Assembly (NCBI GenBank): GCA_041548245.1
Contig: JBFESZ010000066.1
Coordinates: forward strand, 1 to 12,066
Direction: 5' to 3'
Length of the DNA: 12,066 bases
From: Sulfurimonadaceae bacterium
Lineage (GTDB): Bacteria > Campylobacterota > Campylobacteria > Campylobacterales > Sulfurimonadaceae
The position numbers are program-made. The stretch's first letter is position 1, and each line of letters begins with the position of its first letter. Positions 1 to 12,000 of this stretch are shown here, piece by piece.

Positions 1-3000
1 ACTTCTACTTGGCCATGCATCACAGACCCCTTCTGCTTTTTTTATAGTGTAGCAAAATTTATGTGATTCCTTTTGAAAAAAGGCAATTCTTGTTTCATAT
101 TGTAATCAAATGAACTATCCATCAAAGAAAAAGAGTAGTACTAATTCAATTATGTATTGTTTTGTTATATTTTGGTTCATAGTACATAGACAGAGATCGA
201 TAGTATTTGACTCAGTACCTTAATAACTGAACAAAAGAGAGATAATACAGTGTCGGTAGTGACAGAGAACAGACAAACACCAGAATATCCCATCCCGGCA
301 AAGCGCAATATTGCCATTTTTTTCGCCTCATTAGGTATAGGCTGGTATCTGTTATGGACAGCCTCACATGCAACACTTCTTCCTATGGTTCTTGCCGCTT
401 TCGCTTTTGCGTTCATCCATAACACTCTATTTTCACTTATGCATGAAGCTGTTCACTGTGTCTTTTCGAAAAAGCCACTTGTTAACGAGTTTTTTGGCAC
501 GATTCTGGCGATCGCCTTTCCCACTTCTTTCACAATGCAGAGGGTAGCTCACCTGGGTCACCATAAACGCAATCGTACAGATAAAGATCTGTATGATTAT
601 TATCTTCCCGGTCAATCCAAAAAGTTACGAGACTTTTGGATGTATACAGGGAATCTTTTTGGTCTTTATTGGTTCTGCATACCTCTGAGCAATTTGATTA
701 TCCTGCTGATGCCTATGGTCTTTACATCAAAATGGTTCCTGCATGGGCCGGCTCGGCTACTCGGTTTTGAACCATACATCGAAGAAGTGACTCAACACTC
801 AATCGTCCGTATCTGGATGGAGACATTGTTTGCCTTACTGTATCAGATCATGCTTTGGTATGTTCTGGACTTGTCCTGGCAGGGATGGTTGCTCTGCCAC
901 TGGTTTTTTGCCTTGCATTGGTCAGCCTTGCAATATGTTGACCATGCATGGAGTCCTAGGGATGTTATAAACGGAGCCTGGGATCTCCGTGTTTTACCGG
1001 TTTCAAGATGGCTAGCACTGAACTATCATTATCATCTTGCTCATCACCGGTATCCTTCGGTCCCATGGGTTTACCTGCCTCAGCTGATCAGAAAAGATGA
1101 TCCCAGCCCAACTTTTTGGTCAATCTACTTTTCCCTTTGGGGCGGAACGAGACCTGCCCCGCCGATGGTCCAATCAAATGAGACGAGAAAAAAGATATGA
1201 AAAAGGCACTCGTCAACGTAATGCATATAGATGAAGCGACGAAACAAACGAACTCTGCGAAGGACACATGGAAGGCATACGCTTATTGGGCCTTTTGGGT
1301 CGGGGTCGCTTTTTTCAGTGTCTATCCCACATGCAATTGGTTGACATCTGAACGCACAGAAGTCAATCAGCTTTTTTTTTCTGCTGAATTGAGCATGCCT
1401 TTTATCCCATGGTTTTATTGGTTTTATATCTCTTTATATCTTCTGTTTTTTCTCCCTCCGTTTTTTCTTGATGTCCCTCGTCTACGGATATTGGGAAAGC
1501 GCATTATCATGGCGACCATCATTAGCGGGATAATATTTATTCTTTTGCCCACCGGTCTTGGATTTGAGAGGATAGCACCTGAAGGTTTCTATGGGCAGTT
1601 GTTTGATACACTGTTTAGCCTCGATTTGCCGCACAATATGACACCGTCTTTACATGTAGTCTATAGCGCATTGATACTGTTTGCCGTGATAGAGTCATCT
1701 AAAAACAGATCAATGCAAGGATTGGCTCTGATCTGGTTGGTCAGTATTAGTATTTCAACATTACTGGTGCATCAGCATCATCTTATTGATATCATTGCGG
1801 CATTGGCCTTAGTCTGGCTTGTGTCAAAAATCTTAATAAAAGGAAAAACAGATGTATAAAACCTTACTTTTTTGTATTTTGCTATGTATGGGAGGTTCTT
1901 TGCATGCAGAAGATGAGACTCTCATCCATCAGCAGTTGCGTTCAGTCTTAACTGGAATCGAGGATGCGATCAACGAACAGAAATACGATGAACTATCGCA
2001 ATTCTTTCATAAAGACCTTCGTGTAACGACGATCAATCAGGAAATCATCTCATCATCTGATGAGATCGGTGAATATTTTCACCGTTGGTTTGGTCCGAAA
2101 GGGTACTTAAAAACCCTGCAGATCAAGCTCGAACCGGATGCTTTAACTGAGTTTTACGGAAACAACAGCTTTGGAATCGTGCGGGGACATGGAGATGAAA
2201 GATACATCTTGGCAGATGGACGCAGCTTCGATATGAAGACACGCTGGACGGCAACTGTAATCAAAGAGAGTCAAGGGAAGTGGAGCATTCTCTCTTTGCA
2301 TATCGGAACAGACTTTTTAGACAACCCTCTTTTGCATGTGGCTGAGAAGTCGGCGATCTATTTGGCCGGTGCAGGCGTATTGGTCGGATTGCTCTTGGGA
2401 CTGATCATAGCGTTTTTATGGCGTAAAAGAGCTTATTCCAAACAATGAAAGACTCCCTTTATACGGTTCTTATCAAACCGATCCATGATCTGAACGAGAG
2501 TGAGGTTGAGGCTATCGTCGAACTCTATCTAGCTTATTATGACGGCAGCAGCCGCGACCGTATCATCGCTGATCTGAAGACAAAGACAGAGATACTCTTA
2601 CTGCATCATGATAGCATCCTTATAGGCTTCAGCAGTTTTGAGTTGTATCAAATCCTGTATGAAGGGAAAATGCGGCAGATCATCTATTCCGGAGACACTG
2701 TAGTGCATCATAAGCATTGGGGGCAACAGGCTCTTTCTTCTGCATGGATACGTTATATTGGAGCATTGCGATCAAAAGTAGGCGAAATGCCTATTTACTG
2801 GTTCTTGATCGTAAAGGGCCACCGTACCTATAAGTTTTTGCCTGCATTTACAAAATCCTTCTTTCCCCATTGGAGCATAGATAGGAGTGACCTTAAACCG
2901 CTTTTGGATATTCTGGCCAAAGAGAAGTTCGAGGACGATTATAATGAGAGCAAAGGCTTATTGGAATTTAAAACATCAAAAGGACATCTTAAAGAGAACA

Positions 3001-9000: not shown

Positions 9001-12000
9001 ACGCCTTTTATAAAGAGACTTTGAGGGTCAGATCGGTTGAAAGTGTCATAGATGAGATTACAGGTATGGATAGAAAAAAACTTTTTTTCTTTGTGGATGA
9101 CAATCTTTTTAGTTCAAAAAAAGATTTATACGCACTGTTTGATGCACTTACCCCTTTAAAGATACGATGGTCTTGCCAAATCAGCATTGATGTGGCTCAA
9201 GACGAAGACCTTTTAGACCGGCTGGCAGGTTCGGGTTGCATCTTTGCCTTGATCGGGTTTGAGTCCCTAAATGAAGACAACCTCAAACAGATGGGGAAGA
9301 AATGGAACAAGGTTGCAGGTGAGTACATGAAGATTGTACAGAAGTTCCACGATAGAGGCATGGCAGTGTATGGTACCTTTGTATTTGGGTATGACCACGA
9401 TACCACGGAGGTCATTCAAAAGAGTCTTGATTTTGCGATGGAGGCGAAACTTGAGATCGCCAACTTTAATCCGCTGACGCCGACACCCGGGTCAGCCTTA
9501 TACGATCGATTAAAAAAAGAAGGACGTCTTATCTCTGAAACCTGGTGGAAGGATGAATCCTACAAATACGGAGACCCCATCTTTACACCGAAACAGATGA
9601 GCCCGGAACTTTTTTCCCAAAAGTGTTTTGAAGTCAAAAAAGAGTTTTATTCATTAAAATCGATTATCAGCAGAGTCTTCTTTACCACACATAAATTCAA
9701 TCTCTTCAGAATATCCATGGTTGCCTTGGCCAATTTTGTCTCGCGTAAAGAAGTACATCAAAAACAAAATAAAGTCTTAGGGGAGTAGACATGAAAATAA
9801 CGTTGATCAAACCGACAATCGGAAGACAAGAACACAGTTTATACGTGGATGAAGGACGAATGGAGCCATTGATGTTAGGCGTGCTTGCGGGACTTACTCC
9901 TGCTGACATCGAGGTTGTCTTGTATGATGACAGAATGGAGTCCATTCCTTATGACGAAGAGACAGACCTTGTCGCAATAACGGTGGAGACCTATACAGCA
10001 AGACGTGCCTATGAAATCTCTAAAGAGTATATGGACCGCGGCGTGCCGGTGATCATGGGCGGGATGCATGTCTCATTACTGCCTGAAGAAGTCCAAGCCC
10101 ACGCAGACTCTATTTTTTTGGGCGATGCAGAAACCGCATGGAAACAGGTGCTTGAGGATGTACAAAACAACCGACTACAAAAAGTATACAAAGGACCTCC
10201 CGGCATAGGACAGCTTGGCGGAGTCATGCCAAGAAGAGAGATTTACAAAGGAAAAGGCTACCTTCCTATGTCTTTGATGCAGTTTTCTCGCGGCTGCAAA
10301 TACGAGTGCAGCTTTTGTGCCGTGAGCGAATACTTTGATAAAAAACATTATGTACGTAAAATAGATGAAGTCCTGCAGGAGATCGAGAGCCAAGAGCGGC
10401 GTTTTTTATTTTTTGTTGATGACAATATCGGTTCACACAAAAGAGCATTAAAAGATCTGTGCAGGGAACTTATACCTATGAATGTCAGATGGATATCTCA
10501 GGCAAGTCTGGATATCACCAAAGACAGTGAACTGATGAGACTGATGGCTGACAGCGGAAACATAGGCAATGTCATGGGTTTTGAATCCATCACGCATGAA
10601 AGTCTCGAAAACGCTAAAAAAGTTTCTAATCTGATTGGCTTTACAAATTATGAAGATGAGATACGGATATTGAGAGAGCATGGGATGCAGACATGGGCAG
10701 CCTTTACCTTGGGATATGATTATGATACCTATGACTCTATTCTTGCGACTATGGAGTTTGCCTTAAAAAACAAATTCACACTCGCTGCATATAATATTTT
10801 AATGCCCTACCCAAACACCCCCCTGTATCGACAGCTTGAGCAAGAAAACAGACTTTTGTATGACGGAAAATGGTGGCTGCATCCGGAGTACAGGTTTAAC
10901 AGTGCGGCCTTCATCCCAAAGACGATGACACCCGATGAGCTCACGGCAGCCTGTCATGAGGCGCGCGTAAAGTTCAACACGCTTCCTTCGCTTCTTTATC
11001 GGTTCTCGGATGTAAAGACAAACATGAAGTCCTTGTGGAGGATAGCCTCTTACTGGAAGTACACGACGCTTTTTCGCAAAGAGGTATATAAAAAACATAA
11101 GATGAGATTTGGACTAAAATGAACAGGCAGTTTTTTAACTGGTATCAGTATCTAGGACCCATCATATTGACGCCTCTGTCCTTTTTTTTATGGTGGGAAA
11201 GTTCCAATGGTTCTGTTCAACTTGTCATGATGGCATGGTTGATCCCTATCATCTATGCTTACATAGTCCCTGCCATCGGGACCAACGTATTAAAGGTATG
11301 GGAATTTGATTCAAAATATAAGATTGGAAAATTTAGATTGCAGCACGGATTTGTCTTTGGAAGTGCGACATCAACGATTGCCTGGTTGAGTCATGTCAGT
11401 ACTGCCACAAACTTGTTTGAAGTTTTTCAAACAGCATTTATCTTCACATCTGTATTAGGGTTTTGGAATATTGTTTATGACATAAAAGCTATAAAGTCTA
11501 AGGTATTGGTTGTGTATAATCAGCCTTGGGCAGATGGAAAGACGGAAGAAGCCATTGTCATGGATTATGCGCCTTGGTTTTTTGCTGGTTTTGGCATGCC
11601 CTATGGTCTTGGCCTTGGAACGGCAGAACTATTATCGGCTGAGCATATGCTGAACGGTTCCTTGTTCTCTTTACTGCTGGTCAGTACGCTTGCATTGACA
11701 ATGATTATCCCTGTACTGGGATATAGACACTATTCCTTTAAAACACACGGGCATTCTGGATGCCACCCCATAGACAGGCATAGCCCCTAAAAGACGATTG
11801 TCTCTAAACGACATTTTCACATGAATAACATTCAGCATCAGGTTGGTTATAATTCGCTTATGAAAAAATATATATTATTTGATAATGACGGCGTGCTTGT
11901 CGAGACAGAAAAATGGTACTTTACGGCCAACTTCGAGATCCTTAAGTCTATGGGGATCACACTTGAAGAAGAACGTTATAAAGAGATCATGATCAAGGGC

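Follow-up and report, generated by a model that had tools for sequence, protein, structure and literature searches.

What could be made by an operon in which a GH3-type amide synthetase stands beside four B12-binding radical SAM enzymes (rSAMs), and how widely is such an operon shared? The window analysed here, a 12,066-nt stretch from a Sulfurimonadaceae bacterium, is an entire contig, and its ends are therefore assembly ends. The first-pass annotation had read it as a mobile cassette, shared with an enterobacterium, whose pathway would yield a heavily tailored N-acyl amino acid lipid.

Gene content and setting of the locus

Eleven overlapping same-strand genes had been claimed, and 11 ORFs were indeed found on the + strand between 250 and 11790 (Table 1). 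Adjacent ORFs overlap by 4–8 nt or are spaced by 1–2 nt. The exception is the 46-nt overlap of g5 and g6, which probably reflects a g6 start called too early. Orthologue alignments of g6 start at residue 16, and the later GTG matches the orthologues better. The leader contains no + strand ORF of at least 80 aa, no Rfam family match and no B12 riboswitch, and promoter-like matches in it (19–48 and 73–101) are no more frequent than in shuffled sequence.

Table 1. Features of the 12,066-nt window.
Feature	Position	Strand	Assignment
Leader	1..249		AT-rich, non-coding; presumed operon promoter region upstream of g1
g1	250..1200	+	Integral-membrane di-iron desaturase/hydroxylase-like protein, FA_desaturase family
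g2	1197..1859	+	PAP2-superfamily membrane protein, phosphatase or phosphotransferase type
g3	1852..2448	+	NTF2-like (DUF4440/SnoaL) with C-terminal membrane anchor
g4	2445..3173	+	Predicted GNAT-fold protein, extended at the C-terminus; constantly paired with the GH3 gene
g5	3170..4639	+	GH3-family ATP-dependent acyl-acid amido synthetase
g6	4594..6006	+	B12-binding rSAM, orthogroup A; GTG at 4639 is the probable true start
g7	6008..7366	+	B12-binding rSAM, orthogroup B; invariably beside A; clade placement from tree
g8	7363..8478	+	Predicted tandem-GNAT acyltransferase; nearest fold N-myristoyltransferase
g9	8475..9788	+	B12-binding rSAM, orthogroup C; tree clade of 21 rows
g10	9791..11122	+	B12-binding rSAM, orthogroup D; invariably beside C; clade of 21 rows
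g11	11119..11790	+	Conserved membrane protein, no known family; 3' of rSAM D
Branch point	11848..11877		Assembly-graph branch point, 58 nt 3' of the g11 stop

The branch point may mark where the inserted cluster ends on the right. In the assembly graph, the contig covering 11848–12066 extended leftward into other sequence in four of four runs, and it was covered more deeply than the cluster contigs (depth 35.6 versus 22.6 in X1, 18.6 versus 8.75 in X2). The GC content is 43.0% for the contig and 40.8% for the genome (97th percentile). Codon usage, earlier called foreign throughout, was scored for ORFs passing a 200-aa filter, for which g3 is too short. The description holds for g5–g10 (lowest 0.5–8.7 percentile among 1320 long ORFs) but not for g1, g2, g4 and g11 (percentiles 30–65). 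The source MAG is 96% complete with 5.67% contamination, and the cluster contig is a binned 12-kb piece. However, another MAG of the genus has a contig that is 100% identical.

Families and folds of the products

Pfam and NCBIfam confirmed the family names given earlier, with two amendments: the "unknown" g4 has a predicted GNAT fold, and the "GNAT-like" g8 is predicted to be a tandem GNAT. With a cut-off of 23.6 bits, the g5 protein matched PF03321 (135.6 bits), GH3_M (50.5 bits) and GH3_C (34.4 bits), and its family profile matched plant GH3 structures with an E of 2.7e-26. The nucleotide-binding motif (G75, S76, K81, T284, E285 and G335-Y340/D344) is invariant among 22 orthologues. According to PMC12493201, OlsH is the only characterised bacterial GH3 and uses ATP to join a fatty acid to ornithine, giving N-acyl ornithine. 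Like the OlsH/OlsI pathway of Singulisphaera acidiphila, as outlined there, the window has a bacterial GH3 with conserved nucleotide-binding motifs, and the operon around it also holds genes for acyl transfer and lipid modification. However, g5 belongs to a separate GH3 orthogroup, and the window contains no alpha/beta-hydrolase OlsI and no OlsG; it has two GNAT-type proteins, four B12-rSAMs and a membrane trio instead. As an OlsH equivalog, g5 was ruled out (47.6 bits against a cut-off of 620).

No Pfam match was obtained for g4 even at an E of 10. Its AF2 model (pLDDT 95.8) matched generic GNAT folds with a Foldseek E of 8e-7 and a VIA Z of 12.2 (LasI 11.6, FeeM 10.4), and hhalign related g4 to the N-terminal domain of g8 with a probability of 81%. 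For g8, Pfam gave a weak GNAT match only. Among the Foldseek matches listed for its AF2 model (pLDDT 94.9), ranks 1–49 are all N-myristoyltransferases (NMTs), with an E of 7e-15, TM of 0.59–0.67 and about 390 columns. VIA also placed NMT first (Z 22.1, 311 aligned), with the tandem GNAT MAB_4324 next (21.2). The model thus indicates a tandem GNAT with a fold closest to NMT. NMTs are fatty-acyl-CoA N-acyltransferases. The predicted g8 shares the two-GNAT architecture of eukaryotic NMT over about 310 aligned residues; however, the identity is 11–16%, no Pfam NMT match was found, and other tandem GNATs (MAB_4324, MshD, Eis) lie only 1–5 Z units from the NMT score. Within 1 Z unit of the NMT match come tandem GNATs whose donor is acetyl-CoA and whose substrates are not lipids.

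All four rSAMs carry the CxxxCxxC motif: CVHKCEFC at residue 188 in g6, CKYSCDFC at 168 in g7, CRFSCEFC at 166 in g9 and CKYECSFC at 169 in g10. Their Radical_SAM scores are 54.5, 74.8, 56.2 and 41.2 bits, respectively. The B12-binding domain scored 44.4 bits in g6, 34.4 in g7 and 35.7 in g9; in g10 it reached 31.8 bits by hmmscan (cut-off 32.1) and 34.6 bits in a six-frame search. DUF4070 was matched by g6 (22.6 bits), and g9 and g7 are 44% identical. The tree resolved four deep orthogroups, with g6 inside the orthogroup A clade of 47 rows and each window paralogue in a Campylobacterota clade (support 97–100). Class B rSAMs (BchE, an anaerobic cyclase, and methyltransferases such as HpnR, PhpK and TokK) share the N-terminal B12-binding domain, the CxxxCxxC core and, with two of the four, the DUF4070 tail, and the top NCBIfam models are BchE, PhpK and HpnJ. 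In contrast to these, the window enzymes form orthogroups of their own, invariably in adjacent pairs, and score 84–110 bits against cut-offs of 481–600 (for g7, BchE with 109.6 against 481). No rSAM family is known to act as a conserved pair beside a GH3. C-methylation is the commonest chemistry of B12-rSAMs. CobS and CbiB were not found in the source MAG, 96% complete, and the four rSAMs would therefore rely on imported corrinoid.

Four of the 11 products (g1, g2, g3 and g11) are predicted to be membrane proteins with conserved catalytic motifs. The FA_desaturase match of g1 (PF00487) reached 89.4 bits with a cut-off of 29.7, and the histidines of its boxes HEAVH, HLGHH and HYHLAHH are at least 90% conserved among 32 orthologues. 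No NCBIfam equivalog was found for g1, the top model being CrtW with 24.5 bits against 350. The g2 matches to PAP2_3 (23.9 bits) and PAP2 (22.9 bits) are under the Pfam cut-offs of 27 and 27.2; g2 has four hydrophobic segments, and 22 orthologues show at least 90% conservation of P150-S151-x-H153, H194 and D198. PF14534 (DUF4440) was matched by g3 (29.5 bits, cut-off 25.2), with a hydrophobic segment at residues 166–192. The g11 protein has hydrophobic segments and no Pfam or NCBIfam match, and 66 of its positions are at least 90% conserved among 15 sequences.

A cluster family with exchangeable modules

The window operon is one copy of a cluster family present in hundreds of bacterial species from many phyla (at least about 590), and its genes are conserved as a unit. 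At least 549 species genomes have relatives of GH3, and at least 591 have relatives of g4. A literature search found no description of such a cluster. The core is g4-GH3, usually joined by rSAM A-B-g8, and rSAM C-D-g11 and the membrane trio g1-g2-g3 are optional modules. Among 80 loci, g4 was present, adjoining the GH3 gene, in 74, g8 in 60, rSAM A/B in 47 and C/D in 23. The A-B pair is followed by g8 in 43 of its 47 loci, g11 follows g10 in 14 related loci, and g3 accompanies g1 and g2.

The nearest relatives of the window are collinear 11-gene clusters in other Sulfurimonadaceae. The earlier count of the GH3 gene in none of 60 other Campylobacterota understates its spread: the cluster is carried by 6 of 300 other genomes of the family, and the GH3 gene was found in two further Campylobacterota MAGs (L005, L067). 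The cluster was also seen in Bacillota and in one Propionibacterium MAG. The Citrobacter IncF plasmid does hold homologues of 10 of the 11 genes (31–66% identity), but the same order claimed for it applies to g4–g10 only; g2-g3 lie downstream, g1 is on the opposite strand, g11 is missing and a fifth rSAM is present. Sharing with an enterobacterium is too narrow a description: the family spans many phyla, and the Sulfurimonadaceae copies, not the plasmid, are closest to the window. The aerobic variant treated below had also been overlooked. Flanks differ across five full-length Sulfurimonadaceae loci (L005, L006, L007, L010 and L040); a resolvase and an integrase flank L010, and in L006 and L040 the cluster directly adjoins a tRNA-Ala. 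Patchy spread, varying flanks, these integration-related genes and the plasmid copy all favour a mobile cassette, although this support comes from related loci, not from the window. The atypical codon usage of g5–g10 is in keeping with mobility.

In aerobic lineages, Rieske-oxygenase modules stand in place of the rSAM pairs. The two never occur together among the 80 loci, and the GH3 tree requires at least five switches. Oxygen fits this pattern: strict anaerobes (Bacillota, Synergistota, Desulfovibrio and Mucispirillum) have clusters that lack g1, which depends on O2. The arrangement resembles the AcsF/BchE and HemF/HemN pairs in that a radical SAM enzyme of anaerobes and microaerophiles and an oxygenase of aerobes hold the same place in homologous clusters, with repeated change-over; equivalence of the reactions is putative here. 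It differs in that the Rieske modules add u241, an RnfD-like/FG-GAP protein and c19, which have no counterpart in the rSAM type.

Candidate products of the pathway

The best explanation is that the operon is mobile, self-contained and dedicated to an N-acyl amino-type lipid that it would tailor without oxygen, a proposal whose chances we consider evenly balanced. Families, folds, motifs, gene order, modules and distribution are directly established, and from them we infer substrate, product and order of steps. The g5 enzyme would adenylate a carboxylate and couple it to an amine; this carboxylate may belong to a free fatty acid, as for OlsH, or to an amino lipid that is already present. Acyl groups from acyl-CoA or acyl-ACP would be added by g4 and g8. 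Each rSAM pair, A/B with g8 and C/D with g11, would perform a single reaction that functionalises an unactivated C-H bond without oxygen, presumably C-methylation or alternatively a BchE-like oxidation. Further modification in the membrane would fall to g1, g2 and g3.

The tailored-lipid proposal of the first-pass annotation thus stands as the best reading from family and context, and it is strengthened by the GNAT fold of g4, the NMT-like fold of g8, the membrane proteins with their motifs, and OlsC- and BtaA-like genes beside related clusters. The OlsC-like hydroxylase lies within a related cluster (L034:5510-6469) and scores 239 bits, against 99.8 for LpxO. In another locus (L072), a BtaA-like DUF3419 gene and a methyltransferase gene lie two and three genes 3' of GH3, after a g1-like FA_desaturase. 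A cluster with a membrane di-iron hydroxylase/desaturase-like and a PAP2-type enzyme recalls OlsC, OlsD and OlsE and LpxO, LpxE and LpxF, as does that OlsC-like gene; however, g1 is an FA_desaturase, not an FA_hydroxylase (OlsE) or Asp/Arg-hydroxylase (OlsC), and all scores stay under the equivalog cut-offs. On the other side, Pfam found no gene in the cluster for an acyl carrier protein, a fatty-acid synthase or an acyl-CoA ligase. The distance of g5 from OlsH, the lack of an OlsI-type hydrolase in the window, the sub-cut-off PAP2 scores, the generic GNAT matches of g4, the closeness of acetyl-CoA-using tandem GNATs to the NMT match of g8, the dependence on corrinoid import and the contamination of the MAG can also be listed against a lipid.

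Multiple B12-rSAMs per cluster are a hallmark of antibiotic and RiPP pathways, not of membrane-lipid pathways, and four in one operon are typical of natural-product clusters. A secreted or specialised small molecule (an N-acyl amide signal, antibiotic-like or siderophore-like) is therefore an alternative, though an unlikely one. The GH3 and GNATs would assemble a small amide scaffold for C-methylation by the rSAMs, in the manner of carbapenem, gentamicin or bottromycin-type pathways. The island-like, patchy spread with one plasmid-borne copy suits this, as do AurF-like N-oxygenase and hexapeptide transferase genes in some related clusters, one metagenome protein with GH3 fused to an rSAM/SPASM domain, and top NCBIfam models that include PhpK, ApyD and KedN5-type, all far under cut-off. 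However, the window has no NRPS, PKS, precursor peptide, exporter or resistance gene, four membrane-embedded enzymes belong to the conserved set, the core is wider in its spread over species and phyla than is usual for a specialised metabolite, and the OlsC- and BtaA-like neighbours point to membrane lipids.

Quite improbable is the remodelling of an existing envelope lipid, lipid A/LPS or an OlsF-made amino lipid, in which GH3 would put an amine on a free carboxyl, PAP2 would remove or transfer phosphate and g1 would act as the hydroxylase. Modification of lipid A and ornithine lipids is a classic role of PAP2 enzymes and of LpxO/OlsC-type hydroxylases, and ATP-dependent taurine transfer onto the ornithine-lipid carboxyl has no known gene, according to PMC12971839. 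By analogy, GH3 chemistry would suit that transfer. Two OlsF-sized ORFs with an Acetyltransf_5 domain are present in G000, and some g4 loci without GH3 retain PAP2, Rieske and SDR genes. Nevertheless, the Bacillota and the Propionibacterium MAG carry the cluster yet have no lipid A, and three acyl- or amide-forming enzymes exceed the needs of head-group decoration. Lipidation and C-methylation of a protein or ribosomal peptide, with g8 on the peptide N-terminus and the rSAMs as peptide C-methyltransferases, is very improbable: the NMT matches of g8, weak matches to the RiPP C-methyltransferase models TIGR03975 and ApyD and three tandem 255-aa paralogues upstream of g4 in a Clostridiaceae locus would fit it, but RiPP models score 23–76 bits against cut-offs of 282–750, the tightly packed window has no small ORF or precursor-like gene and no protease, leader-recognition or transporter gene, and the membrane desaturase and PAP2 module would have no role.

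Two further observations favour the amide-linked lipid. Ornithine lipids make up to 40% of the lipids of Sulfurimonas gotlandica, according to PMC9789136; together with the OlsF-sized ORFs of G000, this suggests that amino lipids are native to the group. In one Pseudomonas viridiflava protein (L163:870-2387), PAP2 is fused to an FA_desaturase domain, and therefore g1 and g2 seem to work together.

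A large and modular family of GH3 gene clusters

The neighbouring ORFs of the operon overlap by 4–8 nt or stand 1–2 nt apart. The overlap between the GH3 gene g5 and g6, a gene for a B12-binding radical SAM (rSAM) protein, was 46 nt as called. The longest-ORF rule probably produced this overlap by placing the start of g6 too early; a GTG further downstream gives the MKIVLI-type N-terminus found in the orthologues. The families named by the first-pass annotation were borne out by Pfam and NCBIfam, and the gene cluster it observed is real and far beyond chance. All of the eleven genes are single copies, and a second copy is absent elsewhere in the source MAG G000 (2.16 Mb, 165 contigs, 95.95% complete, 5.67% contamination). 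No Rfam family, including a B12 riboswitch, was found in the window at gathering thresholds. Promoter-like sites were rarer than in shuffles (14 versus a mean of 21.9). There were 20 terminator-like sites versus 10.2 in shuffles, and none stood at an operon end.

The cassette had been described as shared with one enterobacterial plasmid. That description is too narrow: one-genome-per-species alignment scans gave at least 549 species genomes with a GH3 relative, and at least 591 relatives of g4 (a GNAT-fold protein). A metagenome protein set held 4353 GH3 relatives at E ≤ 1e-10 among 8000 scored candidates. For counting modules, the eleven window proteins were mapped onto the best 80 of the at least 549 GH3 loci. 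In these 80 loci, g4 adjoins GH3 in 74 and the tandem GNAT protein g8 is found in 60. The rSAM orthogroups A and B (g6 and g7) occur in 47, 43 of which also have g8. Orthogroups C and D (g9 and g10) occur in 23, just one of which is missing A/B, and the membrane protein g11 follows D in 14. The genes g1 (desaturase-like), g2 (PAP2-like) and g3 (DUF4440) co-occur in varying order and orientation. The same modules were recovered by all-against-all clustering of 1232 ORFs. The cluster family is large, modular and undescribed.

The carriers include Sulfurimonadaceae, Chromatiales, Gallionellaceae, Woeseiaceae, Thiodiazotropha, Synergistota, Desulfovibrio, Planctomycetota, Bacillota, Mucispirillum, Saganbacteria, cyanobacteria, Burkholderiales, Acidobacteriota, Verrucomicrobiota and Mesorhizobium. 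All eleven genes are present in the cultured Budvicia aquatica DSM 5075. Five Mesorhizobium loci (L048, L049, L051, L056 and L066) have a minimal version, g4-GH3, which lacks g8 and any rSAM or Rieske genes. In four of these loci the next gene encodes c16, a protein of 435–441 aa with no family, which was not resolved in L066; hhalign found no similarity between c16 and g8. In a GH3-less variant, an Mpo1-like or amidohydrolase gene is followed by PAP2, g4, Rieske and SDR genes. The cluster of a Clostridiaceae MAG (L055) has five rSAM genes. It also holds three tandem paralogous ORFs with no Pfam family (table).

Coordinates of features in the window, in related loci (L numbers) and elsewhere in the source MAG G000
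Feature	Location	Remark
Operon g1–g11	window 250-11790	eleven ORFs, + strand
Start of g6 as called	window 4594-4641	probably too early
GTG, alternative start of g6	window 4639	1-base overlap with g5 stop
HAD-IA / beta-phosphoglucomutase-like hydrolase, 5' end	window 11821-12066	cut by contig end
Assembly-graph (unitig) branch	window 11848-11877	58 nt after g11
Truncated type I restriction R gene and resolvase	L010:5284-6749	Sulfuricurvum MAG; resolvase directly upstream of cluster
Fic and phage-type integrase	L010:18872-21375	downstream side
Divergent A-like B12-rSAM gene	L001:21076-22389	Citrobacter IncF plasmid; beside inverted g1
Three tandem paralogous 255-aa ORFs	L055:2767-5175	directly upstream of g4
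PAP2 + FA_desaturase fusion (g2 + g1), 505 aa	L163:870-2387	Pseudomonas viridiflava ICMP 19473
RnfD/NqrB-like + FG-GAP + UnbV_ASPIC proteins, ~1000 aa	L029, L045, L052 (e.g. L052:12431-15331)	directly after or just downstream of g8; Rieske-type clusters
ORFs of 583 and 591 aa with Acetyltransf_5 (OlsB-type) domain	G000:C6:24085-24390, G000:C162:1376-1681	

Probable horizontal transfer of the operon

The operon is probably accessory and acquired by horizontal transfer. The GH3 gene was found in 6 of 300 other Sulfurimonadaceae genomes, belonging to 3 of 23 genera. Among the six carriers, one MAG belongs to the same genus and has a contig 100% identical to the window, which makes an artefact of binning less plausible. 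The closest relatives are collinear eleven-gene clusters of Sulfuricurvum and Sulfurimonadaceae MAGs, with 48–80% protein identity and on contigs as long as 628 kb. Trees were built by FastTree, their supports being local SH-like values and not bootstraps. In each of five gene trees (the four rSAM orthogroups and GH3), the window grouped with six other Campylobacterota sequences, and this group was nested among sulfur- and iron-oxidising gamma- and beta-proteobacteria. The Citrobacter plasmid copy was placed elsewhere in the gamma-/beta-proteobacterial part and is not sister to the window. A cassette common mainly to Enterobacteria was rejected, as the plasmid copy lies among gamma-/beta-proteobacterial copies on both trees.

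The flanks are unrelated among the five full-length Sulfurimonadaceae loci (L005, L006, L007, L010 and L040). The setting of L010 looks like a genomic island, with a resolvase and a phage-type integrase at its sides, and a tRNA-Ala stands about 100 nt after g11 in L006 and L040. No integrase, recombinase, tRNA or repeat boundary was found in the window, which is the whole 12,066-bp contig C66. The GC content of the contig is at the 97th percentile. The foreign codon usage that had been ascribed to all of the genes held for g5–g10, which lie in the lowest 0.5–8.7 percentile of 1320 long ORFs, and failed for g1, g2, g4 and g11, which are ordinary; g3 was not scored. In the public assemblies of four runs the cluster is covered without joints. 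The HAD-like fragment at the contig end has no counterpart beside related clusters and is therefore host flank, outside the cluster. The assembly graph branches shortly after g11 in the four runs; beyond the branch, the HAD-like flank has 1.6–2.1 times the cluster depth and a second left neighbour. This gives a weak hint of strain variants without the insert, whose boundary would lie at the branch.

Properties of the encoded proteins

All three GH3 domains were detected in g5 (PF03321, PF23571 and PF23572 at 135.6, 50.5 and 34.4 bits against a cut-off of 23.6), and the profile of its orthologues matched plant GH3 structures at E 2.7e-26. The motif residues G75, S76 and K81, T284 and E285, and G335, G336, L337, Y338, R339, Y340 and D344 are invariant in 22 orthologues. 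The nucleotide-binding motifs of GH3 proteins are described in the accessible text of PMC12493201 as SSGTS..K-like, YGSSE-like and GLYRYR.GD. According to the same text, OlsH, which joins a fatty acid to ornithine, is the only characterised bacterial GH3 (PMC12493201). An OlsH orthologue was ruled out for g5, the score on the equivalog NF052613 (lyso-ornithine lipid synthetase) being far under the cut-off (47.6 versus 620 bits, residues 2–204 only; 33.5 and 17.7 bits in a six-frame search). In contrast to the OlsHI pathway, which carries the alpha/beta-hydrolase O-acyltransferase OlsI in its operon, the window operon lacks one: none of the 12 ORFs in the window matched an alpha/beta-hydrolase family. 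A complex prediction for GH3 and g4 gave a score of 0.00 with controls absent, and is evidence neither way. Rare GH3 fusions were seen in the metagenome proteins P0125 (982 aa) and P0124 (1411 aa), one with radical SAM/SPASM and one with ATP-grasp.

Pfam gave a weak GNAT signal on g8 and no match on g4. For g4 and g8, orthologues of related loci were aligned (55 and 50, respectively) and structures were predicted. The AF2 model of g4 (pLDDT 95.8) shows the GNAT fold, extended at the C-terminus. Foldseek returned 304 PDB matches at E ≤ 0.001, and all among those listed are GNAT-type acyltransferases or annotated probable ones. The matches are generic, with E about 1e-6 to AAC(2') and NatD. A VIA search gave Z up to 12.2, including 11.6 for the AHL synthase LasI and 10.4 for the N-acyl amino acid synthase FeeM; the g4 profile had 0 matches to PDB sequences at E up to 1. 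The model of g8 (pLDDT 94.9) is a tandem GNAT. Ranks 1–49 of its Foldseek matches, as listed, are all N-myristoyltransferases (NMTs; E 7e-15, TM 0.59–0.67). The VIA search, independent of Foldseek, also put NMT first (Z 22.1, rmsd 3.7, 311 residues aligned), followed by a mycobacterial tandem GNAT at Z 21.2 and several others at 17–20. Therefore, the fold of g8 is common to other tandem GNATs. No Pfam NMT domain was found on g8, its matches up to E 10 being just Acetyltransf_1, Acetyltransf_9 and DUF7825. The NMT likeness of the model is thus a lead for a protein that stands outside the NMT family by sequence, and the GNAT matches of g4 and g8 do not tell substrates apart. A distant kinship links g4 to the first domain of g8 (hhalign, 81%), and the ESM-Atlas neighbours of both fall in clusters that are unnamed or GNAT-named.

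The rSAM proteins g6, g7, g9 and g10 have the Radical_SAM domain at 41–75 bits and the B12-binding domain at 44.4, 34.4, 35.7 and 31.8 bits against a cut-off of 32.1, the last reaching 34.6 in a six-frame search. The CxxxCxxC motif is present in all four, which are class B radical SAM proteins. Among the window paralogues, A shares 32–35% identity with B, C and D; the values for B-C, B-D and C-D are 44, 42 and 38%. Every NCBIfam equivalog scored under its cut-off, given in brackets: BchE 110 (481), PhpK 104 (600), HpnJ 96 (578), TIGR04072 87 (360) and HpnR 62 (650), and the ladderane rSAM model was likewise missed. Cobalamin-dependent radical SAM methyltransferases pass a methyl group from methylcobalamin to their substrate; the best-scoring models span methylases (PhpK, HpnR) and non-methylases (BchE, HpnJ). 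In a tree of 131 rSAMs, A, B, C and D formed four deep orthogroups, each across many phyla. Therefore, all four paralogues are old and have kept their positions. The Citrobacter plasmid locus has a fifth, divergent rSAM gene, which groups on one long branch with the additional rSAM of the Clostridiaceae cluster; the Budvicia matches included nothing that corresponds to it. Six ORFs of G000 have a B12-binding domain, two of them outside the window, and CobS and CbiB were not found in this 96%-complete MAG. The organism is probably a corrinoid importer/auxotroph, and its four window rSAMs would depend on an imported supply.

In the membrane module, g1 matches FA_desaturase (PF00487) at 89.4 versus 29.7 bits. 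Its histidine boxes HEAVH, HLGHH and HYHLAHH are conserved in 32 orthologues; such a three-box pattern is characteristic of the membrane fatty-acid desaturase/hydroxylase family. The O2-dependent g1 is missing from the clusters of strict anaerobes. The scores of g2 lie under the cut-offs (PAP2_3 23.9 against 27, PAP2 22.9 against 27.2 bits), and its orthologues reach 60 bits on PAP2_3. The catalytic motifs of PAP2 enzymes are PSGH and H...D. P150-S151-x-H153, H194 and D198 of g2 (PSxH and HxxxD) are at least 90% conserved, and a pattern search did not find KxxxxxxRP in it. A C-terminal membrane anchor follows the DUF4440 domain of g3, and g11 has no Pfam or NCBIfam match. The fusion gene of P. 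viridiflava, which joins g2 and g1, is divergent from the neighbouring g4 and g8-like gene; its desaturase half scored 69 bits on the GntB arginine gamma-hydroxylase model (cut-off 380).

The proposed product and its possible modification with or without oxygen

A heavily tailored N-acyl amino acid lipid had been proposed as the product. The proposal is supported in part and needs widening, since the cluster family extends beyond one plasmid. GH3-dependent bacterial lipid or amide synthesis is of an already known kind. We put at about even the chance that the pathway makes an amide-linked lipid and tailors it by radical chemistry independent of oxygen. On the lipid side stand the precedent of OlsH, the g2-g1 fusion of P. 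viridiflava and the gene content of the GH3-less variant; the fold of g8 comes nearest to that of a fatty-acyl transferase, and the gene set includes four membrane proteins. A gene of the related cluster L034 scored 239 bits on the OlsC model versus 99.8 on LpxO, under the OlsC cut-off of 450. A BtaA-like DUF3419 gene and a methyltransferase gene stand just downstream of the Pirellulaceae cluster, past its g1-like desaturase. Several points count against a lipid: g5 is no OlsH equivalog and has no OlsI-type hydrolase beside it, the GNAT matches fit substrates of various kinds, ACP or fatty-acid genes are absent from the cluster, and the combination of several B12-rSAMs is more familiar from antibiotic and RiPP pathways. 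Such a combination would suit a specialised soluble metabolite, which, with four membrane proteins in the set, we consider unlikely.

The carboxylate used by g5 could be either that of a free fatty acid or that of a lipid. Two ORFs of G000 (583 and 591 aa) are candidate bifunctional OlsF-type amino-lipid synthases, as their size and Acetyltransf_5 domain fit. Therefore, the host may already make ornithine-type lipids open to the action of the cluster. Sulfurimonas species make ornithine lipids, which in S. gotlandica account for as much as 40% of the lipids according to the accessible text of PMC9789136. An ATP-dependent enzyme attaches taurine to the carboxyl of ornithine lipid; it is called unidentified in the accessible part of a review (PMC12971839), and GH3 chemistry would fit head-group extension such as taurine addition. 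Remodelling of an existing envelope lipid is a candidate still weaker than a soluble metabolite. Peptide or protein lipidation, which the NMT-like fold of g8 may call to mind, is highly improbable. A RiPP pathway was rejected because a precursor gene is absent.

The full-text literature, with subscription papers and supplements outside its scope, yielded no paper in which B12-radical SAM genes are described as clustering with a GH3 gene, and the accessible texts of PMC12493201 and PMC12971839 contain 0 mentions of radical SAM. The OlsH authors raise the question of what many other bacterial GH3 proteins do (PMC12493201, accessible text). These proteins are many and barely characterised. With two GNATs, paired B12-rSAMs and a membrane module, a large GH3 clade gains a fixed context and thus a testable pathway. 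As the carriers oxidise sulfur and iron in redox gradients, the lipid could be an environmental biomarker.

A second, aerobic cluster type occurs in Burkholderiales, Chitinibacteraceae, cyanobacteria, Acidobacteriota and Verrucomicrobiota, where the rSAM genes are missing and Rieske-type genes flank the core. These encode a Rieske/VanA_C oxygenase (RieA), the 241-aa protein u241, in which hhalign found no similarity to g4, and a protein of about 1000 aa with an RnfD-like membrane domain and FG-GAP and UnbV_ASPIC repeats. A second Rieske protein (RieB) and the 350-aa c19 are frequent. Extra FA desaturases, an AurF-like di-iron protein or a hexapeptide transferase are rarer and occur in both cluster types. 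Among the best 80 GH3 loci, 47 have A/B, 14 the RieA set, none both and 19 neither, some of these 19 being truncated contigs. Likewise, 23 have C/D, 7 the RieB set and none both. The hybrid loci L018 and L025 keep A/B-g8 and have RieB-c19 in place of C/D-g11. On the GH3 tree (78 sequences), the Rieske label requires 9 parsimony changes, at least 5 of which are forced by well-supported branches. Therefore, the exchange was repeated and reflects more than one inherited event.

AcsF/BchE and HemF/HemN are pairs of oxygen-dependent and oxygen-independent enzymes. The rSAM/Rieske pattern recalls them, and equivalence of the reactions is putative. It is conceivable, though rather doubtful, that the conserved rSAM pairs are oxygen-independent stand-ins for the Rieske modules, performing without O2 the C-H functionalisation for which aerobic carriers use oxygenases, on a new and widespread class of multiply acylated amino lipid. 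Their reaction would then be either an oxidation or hydroxylation of the BchE kind or an alkylation with an equivalent function. The aerobic/anaerobic module exchange is possibly new. If the stand-in relation is true, it would be a new aerobic/anaerobic pathway duality in lipid biosynthesis, and class B radical SAM enzymes would gain a new reaction type, possibly with heteromeric action. Should the modules prove isofunctional, they would form a natural experiment on how one lipid decoration arises both with oxygen and without it, and a function would be assigned to four uncharacterised class B radical SAM orthogroups. Chitinimonas and Parachitinimonas, with Chitinimonas prasina and Parachitinimonas caeni DQS-5 as examples, are cultured carriers of the Rieske type, so that cultured carriers are at hand for both types.
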